A stretch of 64,000 bases of DNA from Escherichia coli (GCF_013122565.1 NZ_CP053258.1); one strand, 5' to 3'; counted from the first letter of the stretch, positions 4,639 to 62,144 are shown. Numbers and translations are program-made. Notes: generated by a model from the sequence alone, not told the origin.

Positions 4639-4806
4639 TTACTGTGCAGTAGGACCGCAACCGCCAATGATTTTAGAAATAGAAATTGCCGGGTGCAGCA
4701 GGTAGTCGTAAGAGCAGTTCTTATCACGGTTTTCAATATGACCAGTACATGCAGTTAACGTAGCCAGTACCGCACCTACCAGTGCAACTTTAATAAATTT
4801 GTTCAT
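4639..4806 (-). CDS. yhfL: Small lipoprotein YhfL (55 aa)
   Basis: Own translation MNKFIKVALVGAVLATLTACTGHIENRDKNCSYDYLLHPAISISKIIGGCGPTAQ; signal peptide with lipobox LTAC; below ORF-track length cutoff. Confidence 0.8.
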   Translation of the reverse strand: MNKFIKVALVGAVLATLTACTGHIENRDKNCSYDYLLHPAISISKIIGGCGPTAQ

Positions 4807-5020
4807 TTACATTCCCTATGTATTATATATTGATTAATATTCATTGATTGTATGAATATAAGTAGACTGCTCATTAAGAACGATACAGGAATATTTAATC
4901 GGCGTCAGTGAGTGAATGACTTAATTTTGTAAGTCGCTGTAACGGTGAATATAACCCATTAGCAGATAATATTTATTAAGGGGTTATGTTTTTATCTGCT
5001 GAATATATAAAGAGAGTTGT

Positions 5021-5048
5021 AAACGAAAAAGGCCAGAATTCTCTGGCC
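5021..5048 (-). terminator. Intrinsic terminator downstream of cysG
   Basis: Stem ggccag/ctggcc (loop aattctc) followed on the minus strand by uuuuucguuu. Confidence 0.7.
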
Positions 5049-32872: not shown

Positions 32873-34114
<1,242 letters not shown>

Positions 34115-34143
34115 TTACTCGTTAATTAGTTTTGAATTAAAAA

Positions 34144-34165
34144 GGGCGCTTCGGCGCCCTTTTTG
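34144..34165 (+). terminator. Intrinsic terminator of the str operon after tufA
   Basis: Stem gggcgc/gcgccc with loop ttcg, followed by ttttt. Confidence 0.85.
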
Positions 34166-34405
34166 CATTTATTGATTGCATATCTTATTTGTAATATCAG
34201 AACGAACAAATCATTCATAATTAAAATATCATATTGAATTGATATTTTAATTATGAATATTTCTGTTTTTAAAATGCTTCATTTATCAGGCTTTTTTCTT
34301 ATTTTTAATGCTGTAATTCAATTCATATTGAAGGGTTCTCGTAAAATGTAAATAATTACTACGTAGGACTTTTGTTTTGTAGTTTTTACGTCACAAGGGA
34401 TTATA

Positions 34406-37099
34406 ATGAAATTAAATATATTTACTAAATCTATGATTGGTATGGGGCTGGTGTGTTCTGCTCTGCCTGCATTTGCTATTGAAGCATGGAATAACCAACA
34501 AGGTGGTAATAAATATCAGGTTATTTTCGATGGCAAAATTTATGAAAATGCCTGGTGGGTTTCTTCTACAAATTGCCCGGGAAAAGCGAAAGCAAATGAT
34601 GCAACTAACCCGTGGCGTTTAAAGCGTACCGCGACAGCTGCTGAAATTAGTCAGTTTGGCAATACACTTTCCTGCGAAAAGAGCGGTAGCTCATCGTCTT
34701 CAACTTCAAATACGCCAGCATCTAATACGCCGGCTAATGGCGGTTCGGCTACACCAGCACAGGGCACTGTTCCGTCTAATTCTTCTGTAGTTGCCTGGAA
34801 TAAACAGCAGGGCGGTCAGACCTGGTATGTCGTCTTTAATGGTGCGGTATATAAAAATGCCTGGTGGGTAGCCTCTTCTAACTGCCCGGGTGATGCGAAA
34901 GGCAATGATGCCAGCAACCCATGGCGTTATGTTCGTGCCGCTACGGCAACGGAAATCTCAGAAACCAGTAATCCACAGTCCTGTACTTCAGCACCACAGC
35001 CTGCACCGGATGTGAAACCGGCACCGGACGTTAAACCGGCTCCTGATGTTCAGCCAGCCCCGGCTGATAAGTCAAACGACAACTATGCTGTCGCAGCCTG
35101 GAAAGGTCAGGAAGGTTCTTCTACATGGTACGTTATCTACAACGGCGGCATTTATAAGAACGCCTGGTGGGTAGGCGCGGCAAATTGCCCAGGCGATGCG
35201 AAAGAAAACGATGCCAGCAACCCATGGCGTTATGTTCGCGCGGCAACGGCAACAGAAATCAGCCAGTATGGTAACCCAGGCTCCTGTTCCGTTAAGCCTG
35301 ATAATAATGGCGGTGCTGTGACTCCGGTTGATCCAACTCCGGAAACTCCGGTTACCCCAACTCCGGATAACAACGAGCCATCAACACCAGCGGATAGCGG
35401 TAACGATTACTCATTGCAAGCGTGGAGCGGCCAGGAAGGTAGCGAAATTTACCATGTTATTTTCAATGGTAATGTTTACAAGAATGCCTGGTGGGTTGGT
35501 TCTAAAGATTGCCCACGGGGTACCAGCGCTGAAAACTCCAATAACCCATGGCGTCTCGTGCGCACAGCTACCGCTGCGGAAATGAGTCAGTATGGTAACC
35601 CGACTACCTGTGAAATTGATAATGGCGGCGTCATTGTTGCGGATGGTTTCCAGGCCAGCAAAGCGTACAGCGCAAACAGCATCGTAGATTATAACGATGC
35701 ACATTATAAAACCTCTGTCGATCAAGACGCATGGGGCTTTGTCCCGGGCGGCGATAACCCGTGGAAGAAATACGAACCGGCGAAAGCATGGTCCGCTTCC
35801 ACCGTGTACTTGAAAGGTGATCGCGTTGTTGTTGATGGGCAGGCTTATGAAGCGCTGTTCTGGACGCAAAGTGACAACCCTGCTCTGGTTGCGAACCAAA
35901 ACGCCACCGGTAGCAATAGCCGCCCGTGGAAGCCGTTAGGTAAGGCTCAGAGCTATAGCAACGAAGAGCTGAATAATGCGCCGCAGTTTAATCCAGAAAC
36001 GCTTTATGCCAGTGATACGCTGATTCGTTTTAACGGTGAGAACTACATTTCTCAGAGTAAAGTGCAGAAAGTTTCCCCTTCTGACAGCAACCCGTGGCGT
36101 GTCTTTGTTGACTGGACCGGAACCAAAGAACGTGTAGGTACGCCGAAGAAAGCGTGGCCGAAACACGTTTATGCACCGTATGTCGACTTTACGCTGAATA
36201 CGATCCCGGATCTGGCTGCGCTGGCTAAGAATCATAACGTCAACCACTTCACGCTGGCGTTTGTGGTGAGTAAAGATGCGAACACCTGTCTGCCGACATG
36301 GGGTACCGCTTACGGTATGCAGAATTACGCTCAGTACAGCAAAATCAAAGCTCTGCGTGAGGCTGGCGGCGATGTGATGCTGTCTATCGGTGGTGCTAAC
36401 AACGCTCCGCTGGCTGCTTCCTGTAAGAACGTAGACGATCTGATGCAGCATTATTATGACATCGTTGATAACCTGAACCTCAAAGTCCTGGACTTCGATA
36501 TCGAAGGCACCTGGGTTGCGGATCAGGCATCTATTGAACGTCGTAACCTTGCTGTGAAGAAAGTGCAGGATAAATGGAAGTCAGAAGGCAAAGATATTGC
36601 TATCTGGTATACCTTGCCAATTCTGCCGACTGGCCTGACGCCGGAAGGGATGAATGTCCTGAGCGATGCCAAAGCGAAAGGTGTTGAGCTGGCGGGTGTG
36701 AACGTGATGACAATGGATTACGGTAACGCGATTTGTCAGTCTGCAAATACCGAAGGTCAGAACATCCACGGTAAGTGTGCTACGTCTGCGATTGCCAGCC
36801 TGCATGCGCAGTTGAAAGGCCTCTACGGCAATAAGAGCGATGCTGAAATTGACGCCATGATGGGTACCACGCCGATGGTTGGCGTGAACGACGTTCAGGG
36901 CGAGGTGTTCTATCTCTCTGATGCTCGTCTGGTCATGCAGGATGCGCAGAAGCGTAATCTCGGTATGGTTGGTATCTGGTCAATCGCGCGCGACCTGCCG
37001 GGCGGCACTAACCTGTCTCCGGAATTCCACGGTCTGACTAAAGAGCAGGCTCCGAAGTACGCATTTAGCGAAATCTTCGCGCCGTTTACTAAGCAATAA
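34406..37099 (+). CDS. chiA: Periplasmic endochitinase/lysozyme-like ChiA (GH18 catalytic domain with four N-terminal chitin-binding repeats)
   Basis: 897-aa ORF-track protein; signal peptide; four repeats of the AW(N/K)xQxGxxxYxVxFNGxxYKNAWWV...NPWR module; GH18 motif LDFDIEG. Confidence 0.95.
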   Translation: MKLNIFTKSMIGMGLVCSALPAFAIEAWNNQQGGNKYQVIFDGKIYENAWWVSSTNCPGKAKANDATNPWRLKRTATAAEISQFGNTLSCEKSGSSSSSTSNTPASNTPANGGSATPAQGTVPSNSSVVAWNKQQGGQTWYVVFNGAVYKNAWWVASSNCPGDAKGNDASNPWRYVRAATATEISETSNPQSCTSAPQPAPDVKPAPDVKPAPDVQPAPADKSNDNYAVAAWKGQEGSSTWYVIYNGGIYKNAWWVGAANCPGDAKENDASNPWRYVRAATATEISQYGNPGSCSVKPDNNGGAVTPVDPTPETPVTPTPDNNEPSTPADSGNDYSLQAWSGQEGSEIYHVIFNGNVYKNAWWVGSKDCPRGTSAENSNNPWRLVRTATAAEMSQYGNPTTCEIDNGGVIVADGFQASKAYSANSIVDYNDAHYKTSVDQDAWGFVPGGDNPWKKYEPAKAWSASTVYLKGDRVVVDGQAYEALFWTQSDNPALVANQNATGSNSRPWKPLGKAQSYSNEELNNAPQFNPETLYASDTLIRFNGENYISQSKVQKVSPSDSNPWRVFVDWTGTKERVGTPKKAWPKHVYAPYVDFTLNTIPDLAALAKNHNVNHFTLAFVVSKDANTCLPTWGTAYGMQNYAQYSKIKALREAGGDVMLSIGGANNAPLAASCKNVDDLMQHYYDIVDNLNLKVLDFDIEGTWVADQASIERRNLAVKKVQDKWKSEGKDIAIWYTLPILPTGLTPEGMNVLSDAKAKGVELAGVNVMTMDYGNAICQSANTEGQNIHGKCATSAIASLHAQLKGLYGNKSDAEIDAMMGTTPMVGVNDVQGEVFYLSDARLVMQDAQKRNLGMVGIWSIARDLPGGTNLSPEFHGLTKEQAPKYAFSEIFAPFTKQ
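35000..35071 (+). repeat. In-frame 18-bp tandem repeat encoding the Pro-rich linker (PAPDVK)x2-PAPDVQ-PAPADK within chiA
   Basis: Four consecutive 18-nt units read from sequence. Confidence 0.8.
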
Positions 37100-37106
37100 A
37101 TGTGTT

Positions 37107-37137
37107 GGCGATACCTTCCGGTATCGCCGCATTTTTT
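37107..37137 (+). terminator. Intrinsic terminator downstream of chiA
   Basis: 9-bp stem ggcgatacc/ggtatcgcc, loop ttcc, followed by gcatttttt. Confidence 0.85.
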
Positions 37138-37140
37138 GTC

Positions 37141-37173
37141 AATGGGCTACTTTTGGTAGCCCATTATTTTTAT
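37141..37173 (+). terminator. Second hairpin with T-run immediately after the chiA terminator (tandem terminator)
   Basis: 10-bp stem aatgggctac/gtagcccatt, loop ttttg, followed by atttttatt. Confidence 0.5.
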
Positions 37174-37267
37174 TCATATTTCTATTTTTTGCTTAAAAAA
37201 GAGTCTTTCCGTAATTGAAATAAGAACTATTTTCATTTATTTTTGAGGAAAGTATACGGGAGTCTCT

Positions 37268-37462
37268 ATGTACGTTTGTCTTTGTAATGGTATCAGCGAT
37301 AAAAAAATTCGTCAGGCTGTGCGCCAGTTTTCCCCCCACTCGTTCCAGCAATTAAAAAAATTTATTCCGGTCGGCAATCAGTGCGGTAAATGTATCCGGG
37401 CCGCGCGTGAAGTGATGGAGGATGAATTAATGCAGTTGCCGGAGTTTAAGGAGTCCGCATAA
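37268..37462 (+). CDS. bfd: Bacterioferritin-associated ferredoxin ([2Fe-2S])
   Basis: 64-aa ORF-track protein with CLC...CGKC cysteine pattern. Confidence 0.93.
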   Translation: MYVCLCNGISDKKIRQAVRQFSPHSFQQLKKFIPVGNQCGKCIRAAREVMEDELMQLPEFKESA

Positions 37463-37533
37463 ACGGAGTGTGTTTTTTGACTTACTCGTAAGCCGTTCTA
37501 CGCTTCAAAGAGTGGAAGCGAAGGAGTCAAAAA

Positions 37534-38010
37534 ATGAAAGGTGATACTAAAGTTATAAATTATCTCAACAAACTGTTGGGAAATGAGCTTGTCGCAATCA
37601 ATCAGTACTTTCTCCATGCCCGGATGTTTAAAAACTGGGGCCTCAAACGTCTCAATGATGTGGAGTATCATGAATCCATTGATGAGATGAAACATGCCGA
37701 TCGTTATATTGAGCGCATTCTTTTTCTGGAAGGTCTTCCAAACTTACAGGACCTGGGCAAACTGAACATTGGTGAAGATGTTGAGGAAATGCTGCGTTCT
37801 GATCTGGCACTTGAGCTGGATGGCGCGAAGAATTTGCGTGAGGCAATTGGTTATGCCGATAGCGTTCATGATTACGTCAGCCGCGATATGATGATAGAAA
37901 TTTTGCGCGATGAAGAAGGCCATATCGACTGGCTGGAAACGGAACTTGATCTGATTCAGAAGATGGGCCTGCAAAATTATCTGCAAGCACAGATCCGCGA
38001 AGAAGGTTGA
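37534..38010 (+). CDS. bfr: Bacterioferritin
   Basis: 158-aa ORF-track protein; SD aaggag. Confidence 0.97.
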
Positions 38011-38017
38011 GCCGTGT

Positions 38018-38037
38018 CGGGAGGGTGAACCCTCCCG
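38018..38037. other. Stem-loop between convergent bfr and gspO, adjacent to the gspO stop
   Basis: 8-bp stem cgggaggg/ccctcccg, loop tgaa; no U-tract on either strand. Confidence 0.45.
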
Positions 38038-38038
38038 G

Positions 38039-38716
38039 TTAATAAGAGATCCAGGCCAGATACCCCAGGTTTATCATGCTGCCGAGCGCAAGCCATGGGC
38101 CGAATGCAATAGTGGTTATAGTCCGGCGTTGCAGAAGTTGTGAAACGATGGCGTAACCAATGCCACCCAGCGAGGCAATCAGCAGTATCATTGGCAACGT
38201 TTGCCAGCCACACCACGCGCCTGCAGCGGCCAGTAGCTTGAAATCACCGTAGCCCAATCCCTCTTTGTGACAAACTAACCAGACGCCCCAGTAAACACAC
38301 CACAGCACCCCATAGCCAGCTACCGCGCCGTAAACCGCATCATGTAGATCAATTAATCCAGACTGCGCATTAAATACTAAGCCAAGCCAGAGCAGCGGTA
38401 AGGTGAGTTTGTCGGGCAGGAGCTGAGTGCGAAAATCAATAACACTGAGCGTGAGTGCGAAACAGAAATAGAGAAAGAGTGCGCCAGTCACTATGGGCGT
38501 GAAAGGTGCCAGGGCGCAGGCGATAGCAGCAGCAACGCAAAGTATCAGGGGCACTGTATCATGCCAGGCATATTTTTTTTGCCTGAAATGAACCAATACC
38601 TGGCGAAACGTTAACGCCGTTTTATCCTCCATAGGCGAGAGGTGATAGGCCATGGCATTAACAAAATAACCTGCAATAAAACCAATCAGAATGAAGAGCG
38701 GCAGTAGCATTGTCAT
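38039..38716 (-). CDS. gspO: Type II secretion prepilin peptidase (A24 family)
   Basis: 225-aa ORF-track polytopic membrane protein with prepilin-peptidase-like regions (VIDFRTQLLPD, GYGDFKL). Confidence 0.9.
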   Translation of the reverse strand: MTMLLPLFILIGFIAGYFVNAMAYHLSPMEDKTALTFRQVLVHFRQKKYAWHDTVPLILCVAAAIACALAPFTPIVTGALFLYFCFALTLSVIDFRTQLLPDKLTLPLLWLGLVFNAQSGLIDLHDAVYGAVAGYGVLWCVYWGVWLVCHKEGLGYGDFKLLAAAGAWCGWQTLPMILLIASLGGIGYAIVSQLLQRRTITTIAFGPWLALGSMINLGYLAWISY

Positions 38717-39177
38717 TATTGTTGCTCCCTGAAGGACAAATGCCTGAGGGTGATCTCTTCGTTTCCGGCAAGAGTAAACTGAAGGTCTTCAATAACAATA
38801 CCGTATGTTATCTGTACCTTAGTGAGCCAGTGGGAGACATTTTCGAGGGGAGCTGTGACAGGATGAATTGTCAGAGTATTGTCCGGGCCGTTTTCCAGCG
38901 TGATAGCCAAATTCTCACGTTTTGCTTCCTCGAGAAGGATATTTTTGATGGGCTGCGTAAGCGCAGGATGACCAAGTAAACCATGGGTGCTCGCTTGATC
39001 CTGCATCCATTTGATGTCCTTCTTAATTTTTTGCGCGTGGGACTGATGCTCTGCAATGTAGGTATCTATCGGTTTTATCACCCCAAGCCAACAAAAAACG
39101 CCGAGCGAGAGAACCGCCAGTGCCGCAACGATCTGTTTTTCCGATGTGGATTTTTCTGCCCACCATGATTTAATCAT
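38716..39177 (-). CDS. gspM: Type II secretion system protein M
   Basis: ORF-track frame 38716..39201; start placed at ATG 39177 (MIKSWW, 153 aa), preceded by AAGGAG and forming ATGA overlap with the gspL stop. Confidence 0.85.
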   Translation of the reverse strand: MIKSWWAEKSTSEKQIVAALAVLSLGVFCWLGVIKPIDTYIAEHQSHAQKIKKDIKWMQDQASTHGLLGHPALTQPIKNILLEEAKRENLAITLENGPDNTLTIHPVTAPLENVSHWLTKVQITYGIVIEDLQFTLAGNEEITLRHLSFREQQ

Positions 39178-40340
39178 TTCCCTGAGCTCCTTACTGTCCA
39201 TACACCACTAAGCGGATCTTTTCCTGTTTTTTCCATCGGAAGCCAGGACTGTGTTAATTCACAGAAACGATCGATATTGGCTTCACTCTTAGCACTCATT
39301 TTTAAGGTCAGCGACTTTTGCTTTTGGCTATAATTCGCTTCCATTAACTGCAGTTCAGGATGTTCCAGTAAGAGCGTTTGCAAATGATGGAGCAACGGCA
39401 CAGCTTCAGGATATTGCTGAGCGAGCTGCTGCTTAAAGTAAAAACGAAAGTTGTGGGTGCGTTTGATCTGCGGGAAATAACGTTGCCAGGTTTCTTGCTG
39501 TTGTTGCTGAAGTTGATCTTCAATCTTAAGCGTTTGCCAGAGCGCGATGCCCCGGCTGCCAACAAAAGAAAGAATGGCGAGAACGAGACAGCTTACTGCC
39601 AGGCGGGCGAGCCATTTTCCCGATTTGCTTACAGTTTTCTGTTTACGAAAAACACCATGCAGCATGTCATAGCGCTGGAATGCAATATCGGCAGAATACA
39701 AACTCAGTGATGGTATTTCAGGATGCTGGATAAGTGGATTGGTCGCTGCAACGCCGTGAGGTGCTACACCATAACAAAGCATATTCTCAGGCGGAAACTG
39801 GGCAGCAAGATGCTGTAACCAGTGTTCATCCAGTTCATTGAAGGCATGTGCGGCACTGCGAATAAGCCAGCTTGTTTGCTGGTTAACCAGAGTCCAGCTA
39901 TCTACTTCCCAGGGAAGATAGCAGCCATCTGGCAAAACCCGCGTCACGTTGAGTCCGGCAGTATGTAAACGCTCAAGATAGCGACTGAGTTTCTCCGACT
40001 GAATGCCTATCACCTCGACACTTTCGTTTTGTTTATCGACAACCGTCCAGTGCCAATTTTGGTTGGCGTCGGGTAATGTCTCCTCCGCCAACCACTGTAA
40101 TGTTTGCGCGGTGAGTTTGTATTTGGCGTTGGGCAGCGTGAGGGAACGATATAACAGACCCTCAGGTGGGATCAAAAGGTGAACATTTCCGGCACCAGGC
40201 TGATCGGCCAGCGACTCCAGCGGAAGATCGTCTGTGAGCGTATGTACCGAAGATACGCTATCTGCGGAGAACGTCATCCATTCCCAATGCTTACGCAGCG
40301 TCGAGGAAGAACGTATTACCATCAACGATTCAGGCATCAC
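39174..40340 (-). CDS. gspL: Type II secretion system protein L
   Basis: 388-aa ORF-track protein (or 387 from the second Met). Confidence 0.88.
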   Translation of the reverse strand: MMPESLMVIRSSSTLRKHWEWMTFSADSVSSVHTLTDDLPLESLADQPGAGNVHLLIPPEGLLYRSLTLPNAKYKLTAQTLQWLAEETLPDANQNWHWTVVDKQNESVEVIGIQSEKLSRYLERLHTAGLNVTRVLPDGCYLPWEVDSWTLVNQQTSWLIRSAAHAFNELDEHWLQHLAAQFPPENMLCYGVAPHGVAATNPLIQHPEIPSLSLYSADIAFQRYDMLHGVFRKQKTVSKSGKWLARLAVSCLVLAILSFVGSRGIALWQTLKIEDQLQQQQQETWQRYFPQIKRTHNFRFYFKQQLAQQYPEAVPLLHHLQTLLLEHPELQLMEANYSQKQKSLTLKMSAKSEANIDRFCELTQSWLPMEKTGKDPLSGVWTVRSSGK

Positions 40341-40351
40341 GATCCTTATGA

Positions 40352-41335
40352 TTAGTAGAGTTGCAGCGTACGCCGATAGATTTGGGCGCTCTGCTGTTTA
40401 CGGTTGAAAAAAATATGGCTTTGCCATCCCTGGGATTGTTCGTCGCTGATACTTTCCGTACTCAGCGTAAAATAGCGGCTATAGGGAAAGAGATGCCCTT
40501 TCACCTGAGCAACCAGGGGCTTCACGCCGGAGAAATCCTGCTGCGCCCAGTAAAGAAATGCTTCCGTGGTTAGCCAGCCTTCCCTCGGCTTTTTTTGTAA
40601 TAAGACCCGAGCGTCAGCATCCGTGATGTTATTGAGGAATAACGCTCTGAAGAGCGGAATATCGTTCTCCGTTAGCATATTAAGATTGATGCTAAGTTCC
40701 TTAGTCGGGAGAACGCAGACATACGGGATAAGCCGCTGATAGATGTTTTCGGTTATGCCTTTTATCTGACGCAATTCACCGGTCAGAAAAAGCATCTGAT
40801 TGGCGCTATGGCGAGGCGGCGTCTGGCTTTGGTAAAAGTTATCTTCTGCGCCGTGAAAGCGTGGCGAATCATCGGCATCAATATAGTCAGCGATTGATTG
40901 CACGAGCTCATCGGTGTTTCCGCGATCGATACCGGCGTTAATCAGCAGCGCACTGAATACCTGGGCGGGGAAATCAGGGGAAGCCAGCGGGTCGTCAGAG
41001 ATTTTTGCTAACGCATTGAGATTAAAACAGTGCTGGGCATCGCGTAACTGCCACTTCACTGTATTGCCATCTTCCAGCTGCAACTGTTGTGGCTGTGCCC
41101 AGTACTGCTGCAACGTGGTCTGTCTGTCGTTATCTTTAACGTCCTGGGTGAGGCTGGCAAGCGCAAGTTTCTCCGCCAGTTCAATATCATATTGCCGTTG
41201 CAAATGATGGTTTACCTGGCGGGTTCGCTGAAGCTGGCTGTGAAAACTGAGCGTCATGTCTGCTGCCAGAGCAGCCATGAGCGCCAGTAACATGAGTACA
41301 ATGAGCAGCGCGACGCCGCGTTGTTCATTATTCAT
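40352..41335 (-). CDS. gspK: Type II secretion minor pseudopilin K
   Basis: 327-aa ORF-track protein with N-terminal hydrophobic segment. Confidence 0.9.
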   Translation of the reverse strand: MNNEQRGVALLIVLMLLALMAALAADMTLSFHSQLQRTRQVNHHLQRQYDIELAEKLALASLTQDVKDNDRQTTLQQYWAQPQQLQLEDGNTVKWQLRDAQHCFNLNALAKISDDPLASPDFPAQVFSALLINAGIDRGNTDELVQSIADYIDADDSPRFHGAEDNFYQSQTPPRHSANQMLFLTGELRQIKGITENIYQRLIPYVCVLPTKELSINLNMLTENDIPLFRALFLNNITDADARVLLQKKPREGWLTTEAFLYWAQQDFSGVKPLVAQVKGHLFPYSRYFTLSTESISDEQSQGWQSHIFFNRKQQSAQIYRRTLQLY

Positions 41336-41915
41336 GGTTATTATTCCCGGCCTGCGTCTGAGCTGGCGACTCTTCTCTCGCTAACTGCTCAGGTAATGCA
41401 AAACGGCGCTGTAACACCCCATATTGCTGAGTCTGCAGATGTAACGTGACTGAGAGAGGAAGTTCCTGGCTTTCCCCGCTGTTACTTTCCATAAGAAAGC
41501 TCTCGACATGTTCCAGCATCGCCTGGGCGGGTTGATCCTTCCTGCCATCCACAGAAGTACGAACAGCACGGTAGAGCGTATGATTTCGTAGATACCAGTG
41601 AACTGTGAGTAAGGTTTGTGCTTCACTGAGAGGAGCCAGCGGATCGCGACTTTGCGTGGTAAAAATAGCTTCTTCACCCAACACCATGATCTTGTCCGTA
41701 CTCCGATTCCTCCGGGCGACCAATTGCAGGAGATCGTTATCAAGAATGGTGATGGTGCGCTGTAGCTGATTGAACTGCTGGATTTCTTTCTGTGAACGTT
41801 GATGCAACTCGGAAGCTTGCGAAAAAATCATAAACGCCAGCACGCTAAGCATTGAGAAAATCGCCAGCGCCGCCATGACCTCCAGCAATGTGAAACCCTG
41901 CTGGCGATTAATCAT
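41328..41915 (-). CDS. gspJ: Type II secretion minor pseudopilin J
   Basis: 195-aa ORF-track protein with prepilin-type N-terminus [10 protein letters not shown]. Confidence 0.9.
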
Positions 41916-42285
41916 CTTGTGCCTGCCCGGATTTATTATCGATGCTTTGATAACGCGTAAGCGAGGTTGTCTGACCGCTGGGTAATGTCACCGTTATGGT
42001 GCGTTCCAGAAGCGTGCCGTCTTTGCTTGAGTGGATATCGCTGCGCCAGTTCCACTCTTCGCCATTTATTAACTCTTTGCCAGAACTGGACGTGTTTTCC
42101 TCGTCGAATGAATCTTGTGACTGAAGCTGGTTATCCGCTATCCACAATGCCAGCGTCTCGTTGCGCATTCGCTCGATGGCATTTCGTTGCCCTTGCATAC
42201 TGCTCATTAAAGTCAGAGCAACAGCGGTGAAAATACTCATCGCCAGTAAGACTTCAAGCAGTGTCATCCCTGATTGTTTGTTCAT
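41908..42285 (-). CDS. gspI: Type II secretion minor pseudopilin I
   Basis: ORF-track frame 41908..42324; start placed at ATG 42285 ([19 protein letters not shown], 125 aa), ATGA overlap with gspH stop. Confidence 0.88.
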
Positions 42286-42791
42286 GGGCGGGTATCTCTG
42301 GCGAGCGTTTGATCCAGGGGCCATGAGCCTGAACAGACTAACGTCAGGAGCGGCTCACCGGTCCCGGCGTTAGCCATCAACAAAGAGAAGGGCGTGATTT
42401 GTCCGTCGGCCAGAATCACCACCTGTGGCTGGTTGCTGTCATCAGGTTTAAATGGCTGAAGATGAATTGAGAGTTCTTCATCCCAGTCATTTTGGCTCTC
42501 GTCTGCGGCATCTTCTTGTAATGGAACCCAGCGCCAGGCTGATGGTGTTTTGCCCGGTACCATAATGCGCCATGCTGAATCAGAGAAATGGATACCGACA
42601 GGCTGACCACTGAGCGTGGCGCGGTCGATGGCTAATTCAAGTGCAGCGGTAAACCGCGCCGCTGTTTCGCGCGCACGAGTGTTGGCGACATCCTCCCGAC
42701 CATATGTGAAGAGCACCACACTTGCCGTGATAGCGACCAGCGCCAGCACCAGCATCATCTCCAGCAGGGTAAACCCGCGTTGCTGATTCAT
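42282..42791 (-). CDS. gspH: Type II secretion minor pseudopilin H
   Basis: 169-aa ORF-track protein with prepilin-type N-terminus [10 protein letters not shown]. Confidence 0.9.
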
Positions 42792-42798
42792 CGCTGAC

Positions 42799-43236
42799 TT
42801 ACTTTTTCTTCTTGCTCAAACCCCAGTTGGTGATGTCGTCCTCGGTTCCCATTTCACCATCGGGCCCTGCTGAAAGCAGATCGTATGCACCATGTTCACC
42901 AGGATTAACGAGGACATAATCATTGCCCCAGGGATCGGCAGGCAGACGCTTGATATAACCTTCCTTGTTATAGTTTGCGGCCAGCGGTGGCAGTGTCGGC
43001 GCTTCGACTAAGGATTCAAGCCCCTGATTTGTGGTTGGATAGCGATGATTGTCGAGTTTGTACATATCAAGGGCGTTTTCCAGCGCCACAATATCGCTGA
43101 CGGCTTTTTGCTTATCCGCCTTTTCTTTATTGCCCATTAGGTTAGGAACCACCAGGCTGGCAAGTACGCCGATAATGACGATCACCACCATAATTTCCAG
43201 TAATGTAAAACCGCGTTGCTTATCCGTTGCGCGCAT
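42799..43236 (-). CDS. gspG: Type II secretion major pseudopilin G
   Basis: 145-aa ORF-track protein, prepilin N-terminus [21 protein letters not shown]. Confidence 0.93.
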   Translation of the reverse strand: MRATDKQRGFTLLEIMVVIVIIGVLASLVVPNLMGNKEKADKQKAVSDIVALENALDMYKLDNHRYPTTNQGLESLVEAPTLPPLAANYNKEGYIKRLPADPWGNDYVLVNPGEHGAYDLLSAGPDGEMGTEDDITNWGLSKKKK

Positions 43237-43245
43237 ATGCTTTCC

Positions 43246-44442
43246 TTAATTAATCAATGAGTTAAGTTGAAGAAGAGGTTGGAGTACCGACACGACAATA
43301 AACAGGACGATCAGTGCCATCGTAATAATGAGTGCTGGCTCGAAGATGGAGAGCGTTAAGGCGATCCGATTTTGTTGGAGTGTCTCTTGGTTATCTGCGG
43401 CTCTGACCATTAATGTGCCGAGCTGCCCGCTTTTTTCGCCAGAGGCCACCATGTAGAGCATCATCGGCGGGAAAATTGCGGTTTGTTCCAGCGAAAGATG
43501 AATGCTGTTACCCTGGCGAACGTTTTCTGCCGCATTTGCCAGACGCTGGCGAATTTCGAGGTTGCTGAGGCTTTCGGTGGACAAATTCATCCCATCCAGC
43601 AGAGGGACGCCGCTGGATTGCAAAATACTTAAAGTGCGGAGATAGCGTGCACTGTTAATGGCGCAAATCAGCGGGCCGATGAGCGCAACGCGCAGCAACA
43701 TGGCATGAAAACGGTGGCGGTTATTGCCGCGTTTTAACCAGAGCCAGAAACCTAAAGCGACAATAAACACTGTCGCTAATAATGTCGGGCCGGTACGTTG
43801 CAACGTGTCGCTCAGACCTAAAAGAATGCGTGTACTCATCGGCAGTTGCTGCTTCATATGCACGAACTGTTCGGTAATTTTGGGCACGACAGCAGTGAGG
43901 AGAATAATCACGACCACAATCGCCACCATAGTGAGCATGCAGGGGTAGATCATTGACTGAATGAGCTTATTGCGTATTTTCTGTCGGTTTTCATTGTAAT
44001 CAGCCAGCTTTTCCAACACCGGGGCCAGCAGCCCGCTTTTTTCGCCCGCTTTAACCAGGGTACGATAGAGCGAATCGAAAAGCGTGGGAAAATGCTGTAA
44101 TGCATCGGAAAGGGGATGCCCTTCAAGGATGGCGCTGCGTACTTGATTCAACACGTAAGCCAGTCGTTTATTACTACTTTGTTGACCAATTACGGCAAGG
44201 CTCTCTTCCAGGGGTAATGCCGCCGCGCTTAAGGTTGCCAACTGCCGGGTGAAAAGCGTCAGTTCACTATGGCTGATCCTCGGGCTACGTGTTTTTACTC
44301 CCGAACTTTTTTGGGGGCGAATATCCAGCAGGAAAAGCCCTTCTTCACGCAGCCGCAGTCGTGCCTGACGTTCATCGTTAGCATCAATGATCCCTTGCAA
44401 TTTTTGACCATCCTGGGTCATGGCGCGATAGCGATAATTCAT
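43246..44442 (-). CDS. gspF: Type II secretion inner-membrane platform protein F
   Basis: 398-aa ORF-track polytopic membrane protein. Confidence 0.93.
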
Positions 44443-45920
44443 GCTTCGCTCTCCAGTGTGGCGCTGGCGACGCGCATAACCTCATCCCAGGAGGTGTCAC
44501 CGTTTATCACTTTTTGCAGGCCATTTTTGATTAAGGCATTGTGTTGTTGCCGGACCAGTCGCTCCAGTGCTTGTTCATCCACATTTTCATGAATAGCGGC
44601 CCGCAATTCCGGCGTCACCACCATCATTTCGTGGATCGCCATGCGCCCCTGATAGCCGGATTGATGGCAATGAGGGCAGCCTACGGGAGTGCCAATTGTT
44701 GTCACCGCGAGCTGATGATATTTAAACATCTGCGCTTGTTGAGGGGATACGGGCGCGAATTGTCGGCATTGCGGACACAGACGACGAACTAGACGTTGCG
44801 CGATAATCCCTGCCAGTGAAGACGAAAGCAGGAATGATTCGACGCCCATGTCGCGGAGCCGGGTCACTGCGCCTGATGCACTGTTAGTGTGGAGTGTTGA
44901 GAGTACCAGATGGCCTGTGAGCGAGGCCTGAACCGCAATTTGCGCGGTTTCTGTATCACGAATTTCCCCCACCATGACGACATCCGGGTCCTGGCGAAGT
45001 ATGGCGCGCAGGCCGCGAGCGAAAGACATATCCACACGGGTATTCACCTGCGTTTGTCCTATGCCTTCCAGTTCATATTCCACGGGATCTTCTACCGTCA
45101 GAATATTGCGGCCGGGAGTATTCAGCGCCGAAAGAATGGCGTAGAGCGTGGTACTTTTACCGGAGCCTGTCGGTCCGGTCACCAGGATAATACCGTGTGG
45201 AAGCTGGATGAGATTTTCTAAATCCTGCTTATCCGCTGCCGTCATCCCCAGGTTGTTCAATGAAAGCTGGAGGCTGTTTTTATCCAGCAGACGGAGCACG
45301 GCACGTTCACCATAGATGGACGGCAGTGTGGATACGCGGACATCTATGTTACGTCGCCCGATACGCAAACTGATTCTTCCATCCTGTGGAATACGTTTTT
45401 CGGCGATATCAAGACGAGCCATGACCTTAATTCGGGAGATAAGCAGTGCCGCCAGTTTTTTGTTTGGCTGTAAAATTGTCCGCAGAACGCCGTCGATGCG
45501 AAAACGGATCGACATTGTTTTTTCATAGGTTTCAATGTGGATATCGGAGGCAGTTTCTTTGATGGCCTCACTCAAAATCGCATTGATCAAGCGGATAACC
45601 GGTGCCGCTGAATCTTCATTCAGGAGATCTTCATTTGCGGGCATCTCTTCCGAAAGCGAGAGAAGATCGACGGATTGATCGATATCCTGCGCAATCTGTT
45701 GCGACTCACCGGTATTCTGATGGAACACCGCTTCCAGCCGGGCTTCAAAATCAGCCTGTGACAAACTGGTCATGGTCTGGCACTGGCCAACCTGACGTTG
45801 AATATCGAGTAACCGCTCGAATGGCGTATCGGCGAGATAAATAATCTCGCCCTCTGAGTAGAGATAACCAATTCGTTGTGCCAGCGCCCAACTGGCTGGG
45901 TACGGTGAGTGAATTCTCAT
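44439..45920 (-). CDS. gspE: Type II secretion ATPase E
   Basis: 493-aa ORF-track protein with Walker [10 protein letters not shown] and C-terminal tetracysteine CPQC...CPHC. Confidence 0.95.
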
Positions 45921-45929
45921 CAGAATGCC

Positions 45930-47894
45930 TTACCGTGACGATGGCGCAGGGGCGTGACTGTTGAACGTGTTCTCATCCAGCACCGGCAAATCTTCCGAGC
46001 CAACCAGCGCTTTTGATTTCCCGTCGATTCGCAGCTGCTGCTCCTGACGGTAGCGGGTGTATTTCTCTTTTGACAGTGAGCGATAAACATCATCGTCACG
46101 GATAATCGTCGGGCGGATAAATACCATCAGGTTGCGTTTAGCGCGCTCGGTCGAGGTATAGCGAAAGAGTTGCCCCACTAAAGGAATATCGCCAAGCAGA
46201 GGAACCTTTGACACTTGCTCTTTAGAAAAATCATCCAGCAATCCGCCCAGGACCACCGTTTCACCGGTTTTAACCAGCACGGCGTTTTGAATAGTACGGG
46301 TGTTAAATGTCGGGCCGAGCGTCGAATTAGACGAAGAGTCAACGCTGGAAACCTCCTGCTCTATTTCGAGCAGTACCGCGTCGCCTTCATTGACCTGCGG
46401 AGTGACTTTGAGTTTTGTGCCCACCGTTTTGCGTTCGACGGTATTAAAGACATTATCCCCAGAAGTGGTCTGAGAGCCGGATAGCACCGGCACATCCTGG
46501 CCAACGTTGAAGGACGCGAGTTTATTATCCAGCGTTACGATGCTCGGGGTGGCGAGGATGTCATTTTTATTGTTACTGGCCAGCGCGGTAAGCAGTACGC
46601 CCCAGTCGCCATTGAAGAAGCCTGCGGCCATGCCGTTGTAGGCGCTAAACATATCCCAGGCAGGATTCGCGCTGGTGATCCCACCATTCTTTTTATAATC
46701 AGCCACACCTTGCGCAGCGTTAAAAATCGGTAATCCGGTATTGGTAAATTGCTGTGCGCCAACGTTTTTATTTGCCCATTGCACGCCGAGGTTGAGTCCA
46801 TTTCCATCCTGAACTTCGACGATGATTGCCTCAACCAGCACCTGTGCACGGCGAATATCCAGACGCGCAATTACCGTGGCGAGTTTTTCCTGGACGGACT
46901 GGTCAGCGGTAATGACCAACGAGTTGGTCTGTTCATCGGCGGTAATAGCCACATTATCCATCGCAGAAGTAGAAGAAGGCTTACGCGAATTCCCTTTTTC
47001 ATCTTTCAGCTTTTCGGAAACACCGGTTAGCACTTCCACCAGATTCGTGGCCTTGGCATATTTCAGGTAATAGACCCGGGTATTTCCTTCCTCGCTCTCT
47101 TCTACATCAAGGCTTTTCAGTAATGAAGTGATGCGCTGGCGTGCTTTTTCCGGCCCGCTGATGATAAGAGAGTTGGTTCGCTTATCCGCCACAATCTTCG
47201 CGGAAAGGAGGGCAGGCATCTGGCTTTTACCGTGGCTTTCGCTGATTAATTGATTAAGAATCTCGGCGAGATCTTCCGCTGACGCATATTCCAGATGAAT
47301 AATTTGCTGCTTCTCTGTGCCGATGACATCAACGCGCTTTATGACTTCAATCAGTTTATTAATGGTGGAGGCACGACCGGTCAGAATAAGAACGTTGGAG
47401 GGTTCATAATGCACAACATTACCGACGCTACCCGCATCCATCATCTGGCGCAGCAGGGGAGCCAGGTCACGAGCAGGAACGTTCTCAAGCGGTACGATTC
47501 GGGTGACCAACTCATCACCTACGCCTGGACGAGAACTGTCAGCAATCATCCCTGGCGATGTTTTTACATTAGCTGAGCGCACCACTTTCAGAAAACCATT
47601 GTCCAGCGTGATCACGGTATAACCGTAAAGATCAAGAATACTTAAAAAGAACTGGTAGTACTCCTGTTGGCTAAACGTATCATTACTGCGTACGGAAATG
47701 GTTCCCTGTACCGAAGGGTCGATCAGGATCGTTTTGCCAAGATGCTGACCCACTATTTCCACGAACTGGCGAATATCGGCGTTATTGAAGTTAGCGCCGT
47801 ATTGTTCGTTCTCAGAGTGCCCTGTACCAGGCATGAGTAGTGCTGCCAGCAAGCAGCAGGTGATTTTATTGAGTCCCTTCATTACGCTGTCCAT
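45930..47894 (-). CDS. gspD: Type II secretion outer-membrane secretin D
   Basis: 654-aa ORF-track protein with signal peptide; first ATG has AGGA 6 nt upstream; alternative start at 47882 gives 650 aa. Confidence 0.92.
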
Positions 47895-48681
47895 TCATTC
47901 CTGTAAGTTCCCCGACGGAAACATTTATCAAACGGGGTACGCCGTTGCGACGAATTGTAAACTGAGCACTTTGTTGAGTTAGCAGTAAACTTAATGCCTG
48001 TGAAACCTCATCAGGGTGGGTCAGCGAAAGATTATTGATCCTGAGGGCGATATCCCCTGGTTGTAGCAAGCTGGTGGTAAATGCATTGAGGCCCTTACGA
48101 GGGTTCAATCGAAGCCCGTATATCTGTTCTCCATCACGTATAGGCGTGGCGATAATATAATCAGCGAGTACATTTTGACTTTCCGAATCAGGCTGCTTGA
48201 TGATGTCAGGTAGCCCTGGATGGAGAGTTACTTTTTCGTAATGCCCGTGAGTTTCAAACACAACGCTGGTTTTATTTATTTTTCTAATAAACGTTCCCGG
48301 CGCTGACTCAAGGGCTTCGTTGAGGGCGTATCGCTTTTGCTCGCCCCCCTCATTAATTAAGACAAAAGAAGTCTCATCATTCGATGTGAGTACAATGCCA
48401 TTAAGCGCTATAGAGAGCTTAGGTGTTTCCTGATTAACTGCCACAGGATTTGCATCTTTTACCCCAGCATGATTTTCGTTACGCCATAAAGCGGCAAGGC
48501 TGAACTCAGACTGAAATGCATTTGTTGGTTGATTAATGATCTGTCCATTTTTAACTATAGTTGTATGGAAATAATTCACATTAAAAATAATCAGCCCTAT
48601 GCTTATAAATATAATCAATATATTGATGGCAGCATCTTTATTATGATTCGCCAGATGGAAGGGGAAACGTAGTGTGGGCAC
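47866..48681 (-). CDS. gspC: Type II secretion system protein C
   Basis: 271-aa ORF-track protein with one N-terminal TM segment; first gene of the gspC-O operon. Confidence 0.9.
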
Positions 48682-48860
48682 GATGTATGTTCTAATAAAA
48701 TAGATTGGGTGGGTTGTATATTGACGTTAGTATAAATAGTATTAATGCCGCTTGCATGAATCAAGCAAAATTTATTTATATTAGTAATATGTATTTAATT
48801 AATAAATGCATACATTATTTTTATGATTAAGGATAATCAATAATTAAAACAGGAAGTTCT

Positions 48861-50330
48861 ATGTCTACGAGAAGAGAAGTTATTCTTGCCTGGTTGCGTG
48901 AGAAACGTCAGACCTGGCGTCTGTGCTATTTGTTGGGTGAGGCTGGAAGTGGAAAAACCTGGCTGGCGCAGCAATTACAAAAAGATAAACATCGCCGTGT
49001 GATTACTTTAAGCCTCGTTGTTTCCTGGCAAGGTAAGGCCGCATGGATCGTTACCGACGATAACGCGGCTGAACAGGGCTGCCGTGACAGCGCCTGGACG
49101 CGAGATGAGATGGCGGGGCAATTACTGCATGCGCTTCATCGAACTGATAGTCGCTGCCCTCTTATTATTATTGAAAATGCTCACCTGAATCACCGCCGGA
49201 TACTTGATGATCTCCAACGCGCGATATCTCTTATTCCTGACGGTCAATTTTTGCTGATCGGCAGACCCGATCGAAAAGTCGAACGTGATTTTAAAAAACA
49301 GGGCATTGAACTTGTCTCGACAGGACGTCTAACGGAGCACGAACTTAAGGCTAGTATCCTTGAAGGTCAGAATATTGACCAACCCGATCTCCTTTTAACC
49401 GCCAGTGTTCTGAAACGAATAGCTTTATTATGTCGGGGCGATCGCAGAAAGCTGGCGCTTGCCGGCGAAACAATTAGCTTATTACAGCAAGCCGAGCAGA
49501 CCAGCGTTTTCACAGCAAAACAATGGCGAATGATTTACCGCATATTGGGTGATAACCGCCCCCGGAAAATGCAGCTTGCCGTGGTAATGAGTGGAACCAT
49601 TATCGCTATTACCTGTGGTTGGCTACTGCTGTCCTCTTTCACAGCTCCGTTCCCCGTTCCTGCGTGGCTGGTACCCGTAACGCCAGTAGTTAAACAAGAT
49701 ATGACTAAGGATATTGCTCATGTGGTGATGCGCGATAGTGAGGCGCTAAGCGTGTTATACGGCGTATGGGGGTACGAGGTCCCAGCTGATTCGGCCTGGT
49801 GCGATCAGGCAGTAAGAGCGGGGCTGGCATGTAAAAGTGGGAATGCTTCTTTACAAACATTGGTAGATCAGAATTTGCCCTGGATCGCATCGCTTAAAGT
49901 CGGGGACAAAAAATTGCCTGTTGTGGTCGTTCGCGTCGGTGAGGCTACCGTTGATGTCCTCGTAGGTCAGCAAACGTGGACGCTGACACATAAATGGTTT
50001 GAGTCGGTATGGACGGGTGATTATCTTCTGTTGTGGAAAATGTCGCCGGAAGGGGAGAGTACCATTACGCGTGATAGCAGCGAGGAAGAGATTCTCTGGC
50101 TGGAAACGATGTTAAACCGTGCATTGCATATTTCGACAGAACCTTCGGCGGAGTGGCGTCCCTTGTTGGTAGAAAAAATAAAGCAATTTCAAAAAAGCCA
50201 CCACTTGAAAACTGACGGTGTTGTTGGCTTTTCAACCTTAGTACATCTCTGGCAGGTGGCAGGGGAGAGTGCCTACTTATATCGGGATGAAGCAAATATT
50301 TCCCCGGAAACAACAGTGAAGGGGAAATGA
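48861..50330 (+). CDS. gspA: Type II secretion accessory protein A (ExeA-like AAA ATPase with periplasmic domain)
   Basis: 489-aa ORF-track protein; Walker A GEAGSGKT; divergent from gspC. Confidence 0.92.
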   Translation: MSTRREVILAWLREKRQTWRLCYLLGEAGSGKTWLAQQLQKDKHRRVITLSLVVSWQGKAAWIVTDDNAAEQGCRDSAWTRDEMAGQLLHALHRTDSRCPLIIIENAHLNHRRILDDLQRAISLIPDGQFLLIGRPDRKVERDFKKQGIELVSTGRLTEHELKASILEGQNIDQPDLLLTASVLKRIALLCRGDRRKLALAGETISLLQQAEQTSVFTAKQWRMIYRILGDNRPRKMQLAVVMSGTIIAITCGWLLLSSFTAPFPVPAWLVPVTPVVKQDMTKDIAHVVMRDSEALSVLYGVWGYEVPADSAWCDQAVRAGLACKSGNASLQTLVDQNLPWIASLKVGDKKLPVVVVRVGEATVDVLVGQQTWTLTHKWFESVWTGDYLLLWKMSPEGESTITRDSSEEEILWLETMLNRALHISTEPSAEWRPLLVEKIKQFQKSHHLKTDGVVGFSTLVHLWQVAGESAYLYRDEANISPETTVKGK

Positions 50331-50331
50331 C

Positions 50332-50751
50332 ATGTTTGAATTCTATATCGCCGCGCGTGAGCAGAAAGAAACAGGTCACCCTGGTATCTTCTCCCGACAA
50401 AAACACAGCACCATAATATATGTCATTTGTTTATTACTGATTTGCCTGTGGTTTGCAGGAATGGTGCTGGTTGGTGGGTATGCCAGGCAGCTATGGGTGC
50501 TTTGGATAGTAAAAGCAGAAGTCACTGTAGAGGCTGAAACGCCCGCTTTTAAACAATCAACACAACACTATTTCTTCAAAAAACAGCCACTCCCCGTCGT
50601 CGAATCCGTCGAGGAGGAAGATGATCCAGGCGTCGCGGTTGAGAATGCCCCCTCTTCTTCTGAAGACGAAGAAAATACTGTGGAAGAAAGCGACGAGAAA
50701 GCCGGTTTAAGAGAGCGTGTTAAAAATGCGCTGAACGAACTTGAGAGATAA
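50332..50751 (+). CDS. gspB: Type II secretion accessory protein B (ExeB-like)
   Basis: 139-aa ORF-track protein with single TM segment and acidic C-terminus. Confidence 0.88.
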   Translation: MFEFYIAAREQKETGHPGIFSRQKHSTIIYVICLLLICLWFAGMVLVGGYARQLWVLWIVKAEVTVEAETPAFKQSTQHYFFKKQPLPVVESVEEEDDPGVAVENAPSSSEDEENTVEESDEKAGLRERVKNALNELER

Positions 50752-50783
50752 CCCGAAGGCTGTTTACTTTACTAGCAATACGC

Positions 50784-50811
50784 TTGCGTTCGGTGGTTAA
50801 GTATGTATAAT
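50784..50811 (+). promoter_or_regulatory. S10 operon promoter (-35 TTGCGT, 16-bp spacer, -10 TATAAT)
   Basis: Hexamers at 50784..50789 and 50806..50811; predicted transcript start about 170 nt upstream of rpsJ. Confidence 0.7.
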
Positions 50812-61688: not shown

Positions 61689-61778
61689 AGCCAGCCAATC
61701 TTTTGTATGTCTGTGCGTTTCCATTTGAGTATCCTGAAAACGGGCTTTTCAGCATGGAACGTACATATTAAATAGTAG

Positions 61779-62144
<366 letters not shown>

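Follow-up and report, generated by a model that had tools for sequence, protein, structure and literature searches.

Whether AT-rich DNA around its promoters marks a bacterial secretion system as silenced by H-NS is the question raised by the interval between the str and S10 ribosomal operons in a 64-kb stretch of Escherichia coli DNA (GCF_013122565.1, NZ_CP053258.1; hereafter the window, meaning this whole stretch). In this interval, at positions 34170-50751 between tufA of the str operon and rpsJ of the S10 operon, lie the chitinase gene chiA, the iron-storage pair bfd-bfr, the gspO-gspC genes of a type II secretion system (T2SS) and the divergent pair gspAB. The original prediction, made from the sequence, held that two AT-rich promoter regions, upstream of chiA and between gspC and gspA, are typical of H-NS targets and that the secretion system and its probable substrate may be cryptic under laboratory conditions. 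We found that both the observation and its interpretation are correct, but already known in detail for K-12. With a probability of about 0.9, the two AT-rich islands are H-NS-silenced control regions of the alpha-type system (T2SS-alpha, gsp) and of its cognate chiA, here in a lineage that differs from K-12 by about 2%.

AT-rich islands and probable H-NS silencing at the chiA and gsp promoters

The DNA upstream of chiA (34170-34405) has a GC content of 0.233 and the gspC-gspA spacer (48682-48860) one of 0.235, compared with 0.51 for the window. A windowed GC calculation, which the original prediction had proposed as a check, showed that composition is not uniform: with 200-bp windows, the two minima (0.21 and 0.245) fell at the two islands and were the lowest spots in the 64 kb (mean 0.51, standard deviation 0.05). 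Per 100 bp, the islands contain 4.2 and 2.2 A/T tracts of at least four bases versus 0.93 window-wide, and 12.3 and 16.2 TpA steps versus 4.5. The bodies of the surrounding genes have a GC content of about 0.50, with third-position values (GC3) of 0.38-0.57 versus 0.46-0.63 in ten neighboring core genes; strikingly AT-rich promoter regions do stand among GC-balanced genes, as had been claimed. The extents given for the islands were right for the promoter spacers but too narrow for the zones themselves, since low GC also takes in roughly the first 200 bp of chiA (to ~34600) and the first 240 bp or so of gspC (from ~48445). A third AT-rich spacer, between chiA and bfd (GC 0.333), had also gone unmentioned; it contains two terminator-like hairpins and the bfd promoter. 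The features of the two islands are as follows.

34167-34600: AT-rich island 1, the chiA upstream region (GC 0.23) into the signal-peptide part of chiA (GC windows)
34328-34333 and 34351-34356, plus strand: predicted chiA promoter, -35 TTGAAG and -10 AATAAT, spacer 17, inferred start ~34363 (promoter scan)
48445-48960: AT-rich island 2, the 179-bp gspC-gspA spacer with both flanking 5' coding ends (GC windows)
48736-48764, minus strand: gspC-O promoter, TTGATT-17-TACTAT (sequence; matches the K-12 promoter found by genomic systematic evolution of ligands by exponential enrichment, SELEX)
48776-48787, plus strand: SlyA box TTATATTAGTAA, centered 79 bp upstream of gspA (sequence compared with PMC5797941)
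48799-48827, plus strand: gspAB promoter, TTAATA-17-TATGAT (promoter scan; same as K-12 SELEX)

Silencing of this locus by H-NS has been described in K-12. The gspC-O genes have been called a cryptic H-NS-repressed transcription unit and ChiA the product of another H-NS silenced gene (PMC5797941), and the RefSeq record of MG1655 uses the product name 'cryptic type II secretion system protein'. In the portions of PMC2649431 and PMC3032704 that summarize Francetic et al. 2000, the gsp system is de-repressed in the absence of H-NS and then secretes chitinase. The chiA mRNA is high in an hns stpA mutant and the chiA promoter is activated by BglJ-RcsB (PMC3950696); H-NS repression of chiA is credited to Francetic et al. 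2000 (Mol Microbiol) in the part of PMC3950696 that cites it. Occupancy data point to the same DNA: in a bioRxiv study, the gspA-gspC spacer is the one protein-occupancy peak left in the ribosomal-gene neighborhood after subtraction of the RNA polymerase signal, and the spacer is catalogued as the H-NS-associated K-12 'promoter island' 3453428_392 (PMC3661553). If the two versions of the MG1655 record are offset by 1978 bp, as we infer, this promoter island maps to ~48462-48853, coinciding with the low-GC interval. That AT-rich promoters mark an H-NS-silenced, laboratory-cryptic secretion system together with its substrate is therefore published knowledge for the K-12 orthologue.

The promoter elements described for K-12 are present here. 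Genomic SELEX in K-12 assigned constitutive sigma-70 (RpoD) promoters to gspAB, gspC and bfd, with gspC flagged HNS (PMC3946193). SlyA binds the 179-bp gspA-gspC spacer, in which the box TTATATTAGTAA was proposed, and its over-production raises gspCDEF 2.4-fold (PMC5797941). The hexamers of the gspC, gspA and bfd promoters and the SlyA box are, letter for letter, those of K-12. Upstream of chiA, TTGAAG-17-AATAAT was the sole promoter-like match in the chiA orientation, and its predicted -10 ends 7 nt before the site that corresponds to the mapped K-12 start (NC_000913 3467918, 43 nt upstream of the ATG; PMC3950696).

When 31000-54000 was aligned with K-12 (NEB Turbo), the two sequences were colinear and gap-free with 386 mismatches; between the tufA and gspB stops there are 375 substitutions, and the locus is 97.8% identical. 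Genes, order, strand and position are the same as those of the K-12 gsp/chiA locus (Francetic & Pugsley 1996; Francetic et al. 2000, Mol Microbiol and EMBO J). The gsp spacer is identical to that of K-12 at 178 of 179 positions (99.4%), compared with 96-98% for the neighboring genes. Because the spacer is nearly identical and the promoter elements are conserved, we infer, strongly on the basis of K-12 homology, that the locus is also silenced in this lineage and that the same regulation would operate in it. The lineage itself appears to be an Escherichia lineage outside the 5,426 complete RefSeq E. coli genomes, among which the best match was 97.9% for the locus and 98.6% for positions 1-25000 of the window.

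Several observations weigh against silencing by H-NS, or limit its reach. Since gene bodies have an ordinary GC content, only the promoter zones fit the composition of an H-NS target, and H-NS coverage would be expected only at the islands. The chiA upstream region (34115-34405) carries 27 substitutions relative to K-12 over 291 positions, without insertions or deletions (90.7% identical), and the strength of repression could therefore differ. A scan with the published 10-mer H-NS motif of Lang et al. (tCGATAAATT) gave 18.5 and 9.7 matches per kb in the islands versus 2.9 per kb in the window, but the 9 and 5 matches compare with 4.9±2.1 and 4.1±2.0 in shuffled islands, so that AT content may suffice to explain them. 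Finally, ChiA aids gut colonization by the adherent-invasive strain LF82, which would make 'cryptic' a condition-dependent label.

In its chiA promoter, the window shares a second allele class with some E. coli genomes (e.g. VE-T9 and LHM10-1). The chiA promoter alleles are all equally AT-rich, and the hexamers are kept in four alleles. At least two chiA promoter allele classes thus circulate in E. coli; the gsp spacer is only 0.6% diverged. Elsewhere in the window, the yhfL-cysG region (4700-5044) ranks third for low GC, falling to 0.285 in 200-bp windows, and has the highest local H-NS-motif count, 7 in 300 bp.

The secretion system and its substrate

The genes of the locus, with their flanks and the remaining signals, are listed below; names and domains come from the list of open reading frames (ORFs), Pfam, NCBIfam and RefSeq as given with each entry.

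32930-34114, plus strand: tufA, after fusA (ORF list and RefSeq annotation of matching records)
34138-34165, plus strand: intrinsic terminator of tufA (str operon), 12 pairs and then a T-run (terminator scan)
34406-37099, plus strand: chiA, predicted 897-residue secreted endochitinase (Pfam, translation, PDB matches, RefSeq name)
37106-37129 and 37141-37165, plus strand: two terminator-like hairpins 3' of chiA (terminator scan)
37215-37243, plus strand: bfd-bfr promoter, TTGAAA-17-TATTTT (promoter scan; same as K-12 SELEX)
37268-37462, plus strand: bfd, bacterioferritin-associated ferredoxin (Pfam Fer2_BFD; RefSeq)
37534-38010, plus strand: bfr, bacterioferritin (Pfam Ferritin)
38018-38037: GC-rich hairpin CGGGAGGG-TGAA-CCCTCCCG between convergent bfr and gspO (read from the sequence)
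38039-48681, minus strand: gspO, M, L, K, J, I, H, G, F, E, D and C (ORF list, RefSeq), comprising the next five entries
38039-38716, minus strand: gspO, prepilin peptidase, 225 residues (Pfam Peptidase_A24)
38716-42791, minus strand: gspM, L, K, J, I and H, inner-membrane platform proteins and minor pseudopilins (NCBIfam, Pfam T2SSM, prepilin motifs)
42799-45920, minus strand: gspG (major pseudopilin), gspF (platform) and gspE (ATPase) (NCBIfam equivalogs above cut-off; motifs)
45930-47882, minus strand: gspD, outer-membrane secretin of the Klebsiella or alpha type (Pfam N0, Secretin_N, Secretin)
47866-48681, minus strand: gspC, GTG start, AT-rich 5' third (Pfam T2SSC)
48861-50330, plus strand: gspA (Pfam AAA, C39-like, peptidoglycan-binding; RefSeq)
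50332-50751, plus strand: gspB (RefSeq name)
50784-50811, plus strand: S10 operon promoter, -35 TTGCGT and -10 TATAAT (sequence)
from 50989, plus strand: rpsJ, start of the S10 operon

With rpsL and rpsG upstream of fusA, the locus is placed between the str and S10 operons, and gene order and coordinates agree with the original prediction, including the position of bfd-bfr (37268-38010) between chiA and gspO. All 17 genes are intact, with no internal stop in any ORF; each ORF in the locus was assigned to chiA, bfd, bfr or gsp, and none is a mobility gene. RefSeq gives the same gsp names to genes 96-99% identical to those of the window. The bfd-bfr pair, whose Bfr protein is 100% identical to that of K-12, would form an independent unit, as it has its own promoter and is bracketed by the chiA terminators and the bfr/gspO hairpin, which is probably a bidirectional terminator. 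A search for the Fur-box consensus with up to three mismatches gave no match. An Rfam scan of the whole window found nothing within the locus; its sole match was Alpha_RBS, the alpha operon ribosome binding site (61709-61820, 102.7 bits), which is expected here, upstream of rpsM.

The core set GspC-M and the prepilin peptidase GspO are encoded together, and Pfam or NCBIfam matches cover every component. GspE, F, G, H, I, K and L passed the NCBIfam equivalog cut-offs, GspJ fell just under its own (62.4 versus 64.85), and GspM was identified by Pfam T2SSM. Functional motifs are in place: a Walker A motif (GPTGSGKS) at residue 249 of GspE, prepilin cleavage motifs in GspG and GspH (RGFTLLE), GspJ (QGFTLLE) and GspI (SGMTLLE), and the intact aspartate motifs VIDFRTQLLPD and GYGDFKLL in GspO. 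GspO (225 residues) has a Peptidase_A24 domain only, whereas the syntenic Enterobacter GspO (258 residues) has an additional Cys-rich A24_N_bact domain. GspD is near-identical to PDB 5WQ7, the K-12 GspD-alpha. GspA contains AAA (AAA_22), C39-like and PG_binding_1 domains, and GspB matched no Pfam family. As gspAB is divergent from gspC-O and none of the assigned ORFs is a pilotin gene, GspAB is predicted to be a secretin-assembly accessory pair in place of a pilotin, a concept described in PMC10329019. By its sequence, the locus encodes the K-12 (alpha, Klebsiella-type) T2SS set. The description 'complete' holds for this set (C-M plus O, with gspAB), although there is no GspN and no pilotin gene.

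Behind a Sec signal peptide, ChiA carries four repeats of a chitin-binding-like module, one CBM5/12 module and the GH18 catalytic domain. In Pfam it scored 39.8 bits for Glyco_hydro_18 (cut-off 29.6) and 47.4 bits for CBM_5_12 (cut-off 26.2); the translation begins MKLNIFTKSMIGMGLVCSALPAFA and contains the GH18 catalytic motif LDFDIEG of the DxDxE type. The protein matches GH18 chitinases in the PDB, and the 97.6% identical gene is named chiA in RefSeq. These features are those of a Sec-exported GH18 chitinase with carbohydrate-binding modules. In K-12 hns mutants, ChiA secretion through this system has been seen, according to the summaries in PMC2649431 and PMC3032704. The ChiA of the window has 17 residue differences from that of K-12, E385V and V545E among them, and GCA_052983875.1 is the one assembly in which the identical sequence is recorded. 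Given that 900-residue variants exist, sites 385 and 545 would be 388 and 548 with an inferred 3-residue offset; positions 388 and 548 belong to a set of five polymorphic sites that PMC11486038 discusses in adherent-invasive E. coli, and the sites equivalent to 362, 370 and 378 are K-12-like.

Relative to K-12, 236 codons carry synonymous and 92 non-synonymous substitutions, and the ratio of non-synonymous to synonymous substitution rates (dN/dS) comes to 0.12 across gsp and to 0.11 in chiA. These supposedly cryptic genes are under purifying selection. Genes that selection maintains must be used under some natural condition, and a role of ChiA in adherent-invasive E. coli fits with this.

In the mechanism that we propose, H-NS together with StpA would nucleate and oligomerize at both AT-rich islands, island 1 covering the chiA promoter and island 2 the back-to-back promoters of gspC-O and gspAB, so that the genes would stay silent in ordinary culture. 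Counter-silencers would relieve the repression, with SlyA acting on the gsp spacer and BglJ-RcsB on chiA. Once expressed, ChiA would be exported by means of its Sec signal peptide and fold in the periplasm, from which a pseudopilus of GspG-K, processed by GspO, would push it through the GspD secretin. GspE would power secretion on the GspC/F/L/M platform, and GspAB may help the secretin past the peptidoglycan.

This locus is distinct from T2SS-beta, which is also a T2SS but occupies a different locus (yghJ/sslE-pppA-yghG-gspC-M, Vibrio-type; enterotoxigenic and enteropathogenic E. coli and strain W). T2SS-beta uses a pilotin (GspS-beta/YghG/AspS) and not GspAB, secretes SslE and LT, and is described as actively expressed. 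Its transcriptional regulation in enterotoxigenic E. coli was reportedly the subject of work by Yang et al. 2007, and H-NS is said to be involved. Among the classical H-NS-silenced loci of K-12, the bgl operon and the cryptic chaperone-usher fimbrial operons likewise have AT-rich control regions, are silent in the laboratory and are relieved by counter-silencers such as SlyA, LeuO or BglJ-RcsB. Unlike in those operons, only the promoter zones are AT-rich here, and the 16.6-kb body has a genome-like GC content.

The tufA-rpsJ interval and other explanations for its AT-rich DNA

The interval between tufA and rpsJ occurs in two forms. A long haplotype (chiA-bfd-bfr-gsp, 16.6 kb; 34167-50804) was found, with at least 80% of the locus, in 2979 of the 5426 complete E. 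coli genomes. A short haplotype of 1.5 kb (tufA-bfd-bfr-155-residue prepilin peptidase-rpsJ; record L003, 3168-4699) was found in approximately 2256, including O157:H7. The flanks are >99.5% identical between the two. The left breakpoint lies directly after the tufA terminator, at 34166/34167, and the right one inside the S10 promoter spacer: in the alignment with O157, the two haplotypes share the -35 (GCTTGCGT), diverge across the spacer and become identical again from 50805, with the -10 TATAAT. A simple deletion in the long haplotype does not account for the short one, whose bfr and bfd have only 80.5% and 77% DNA identity to those of the window (~78% together), as distant as either is from Enterobacter, and whose peptidase is only 41% identical to GspO at the protein level.

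A candidate classical mobile genomic island was rejected: we found no tRNA gene in the 64-kb window, no shared repeat of at least 9 bp at the haplotype junctions and no mobility gene among the locus ORFs, and gene-body GC is ordinary. The presence/absence polymorphism is nevertheless real despite these missing signatures. It is possible, although we consider it somewhat improbable, that the interval from the tufA terminator to the S10 promoter is an ancient two-allele cassette and not a simple presence or absence of gsp. If this were true, one allele would have entered E. coli by homologous replacement from another genus, iron-storage genes included. A further role of the H-NS islands might then be to insulate a silent cassette that has ribosomal operons, str and S10, on either side, and the published term 'gspO-rpsJ deletion' (PMC3032704) would describe the short haplotype incompletely.

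A search with GspF in 100,044 species-representative genomes recovered the synteny in Enterobacter and returned no Escherichia locus. In Enterobacter sichuanensis and an Enterobacter metagenome-assembled genome, the genes have the same position and order (rpsJ-gspA-gspC..O-bfr-bfd-(chiA)), with Gsp proteins 26-77% identical to those of the window; synteny at such identities indicates that the arrangement is old. The E. sichuanensis locus also has its GC minimum at the gspC start. A 12-kb contig labeled 'Flavobacterium paronense' (NZ_JAUFQN010000012.1) carries an enterobacterial-type rpsJ-gspB-gspA-gspC..H, with RpsJ 100% and GspF 78% identical. It looked like a mosaic relative, but both gspA and gspC are fragmented into short ORFs in it; we set it aside as probably a contaminant or a long-read contig rich in errors.

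These data bear on the idea that the AT-richness is a compositional relic of exchanged-cassette junctions and is not kept for regulation. The presence or absence of the interval across E. coli, the start of the left island exactly at the breakpoint (34167) and the divergence of about 20% between the enclosed bfd-bfr and that of the other haplotype would all suit such an origin. However, island 2 is internal to the cassette and away from the junctions, its spacer is better conserved than the neighboring genes, and an AT-rich gspC start recurs in Enterobacter despite the low Gsp identity. As tRNA gene, flanking repeats and mobility gene are also missing, we regard a junction relic as very unlikely.

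Slightly less likely again is the view that nothing but normal promoter and terminator features, such as UP elements and T-runs, lies behind the AT-rich spacers, with no role in silencing. Since intergenic DNA is always AT-richer than genes, we compared the islands with the intergenic regions of at least 60 bp in the window (25 regions; median GC 0.433, standard deviation 0.081). The gspC-gspA (0.235) and tufA-chiA (0.261) spacers were the two most AT-rich of the 25, about 2 standard deviations below the mean. Therefore, the AT contrast is real, but less extreme than the comparison with genes suggests. Other spacers are low as well (pabA-argD 0.294, yhfL-cysG 0.311, nirC-nirD 0.312), and the H-NS motif counts may reflect composition, as ordinary spacers would have it. 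Against this stand the extreme rank of the two islands, the extension of low GC 200-240 bp into coding sequence and the H-NS repression and occupancy shown in K-12 at a near-identical gsp spacer and at the chiA promoter.

Least likely of all, a decaying, functionless remnant en route to pseudogenes would agree with laboratory silence and with the many E. coli that lack the locus or carry damaged copies (LHM10-1, an O121 strain), but not with 17 intact genes, a dN/dS of 0.12, intact catalytic and processing motifs and, according to PMC2649431 and PMC3032704, the secretion of ChiA by the derepressed K-12 system. A pseudogene cluster was ruled out by the intact ORFs and the dN/dS value. Decay of the locus is seen in other genomes, as an IS1-mediated deletion from gspK to gspA in LHM10-1 (record L032, 24247-26873) and as IS2 insertions in the O121 strain.

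A probably silent secretion machine and its natural use

H-NS silencing of the gsp and chiA promoters, the reading that we prefer, makes this locus a case in which the regulation of a textbook cryptic locus was correctly inferred from sequence alone. What is new is modest: a divergent chiA promoter allele (9% from K-12), purifying selection on the genes and a dimorphic tufA-rpsJ cassette. These small additions (selection, chiA promoter allele and cassette) are incremental and could guide work on when and where the system is switched on in nature. For H-NS, the locus serves as the standard case of an entire secretion apparatus being silenced; it is relevant to the engineering of protein secretion in E. 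coli, and its ChiA to gut colonization by adherent-invasive strains.

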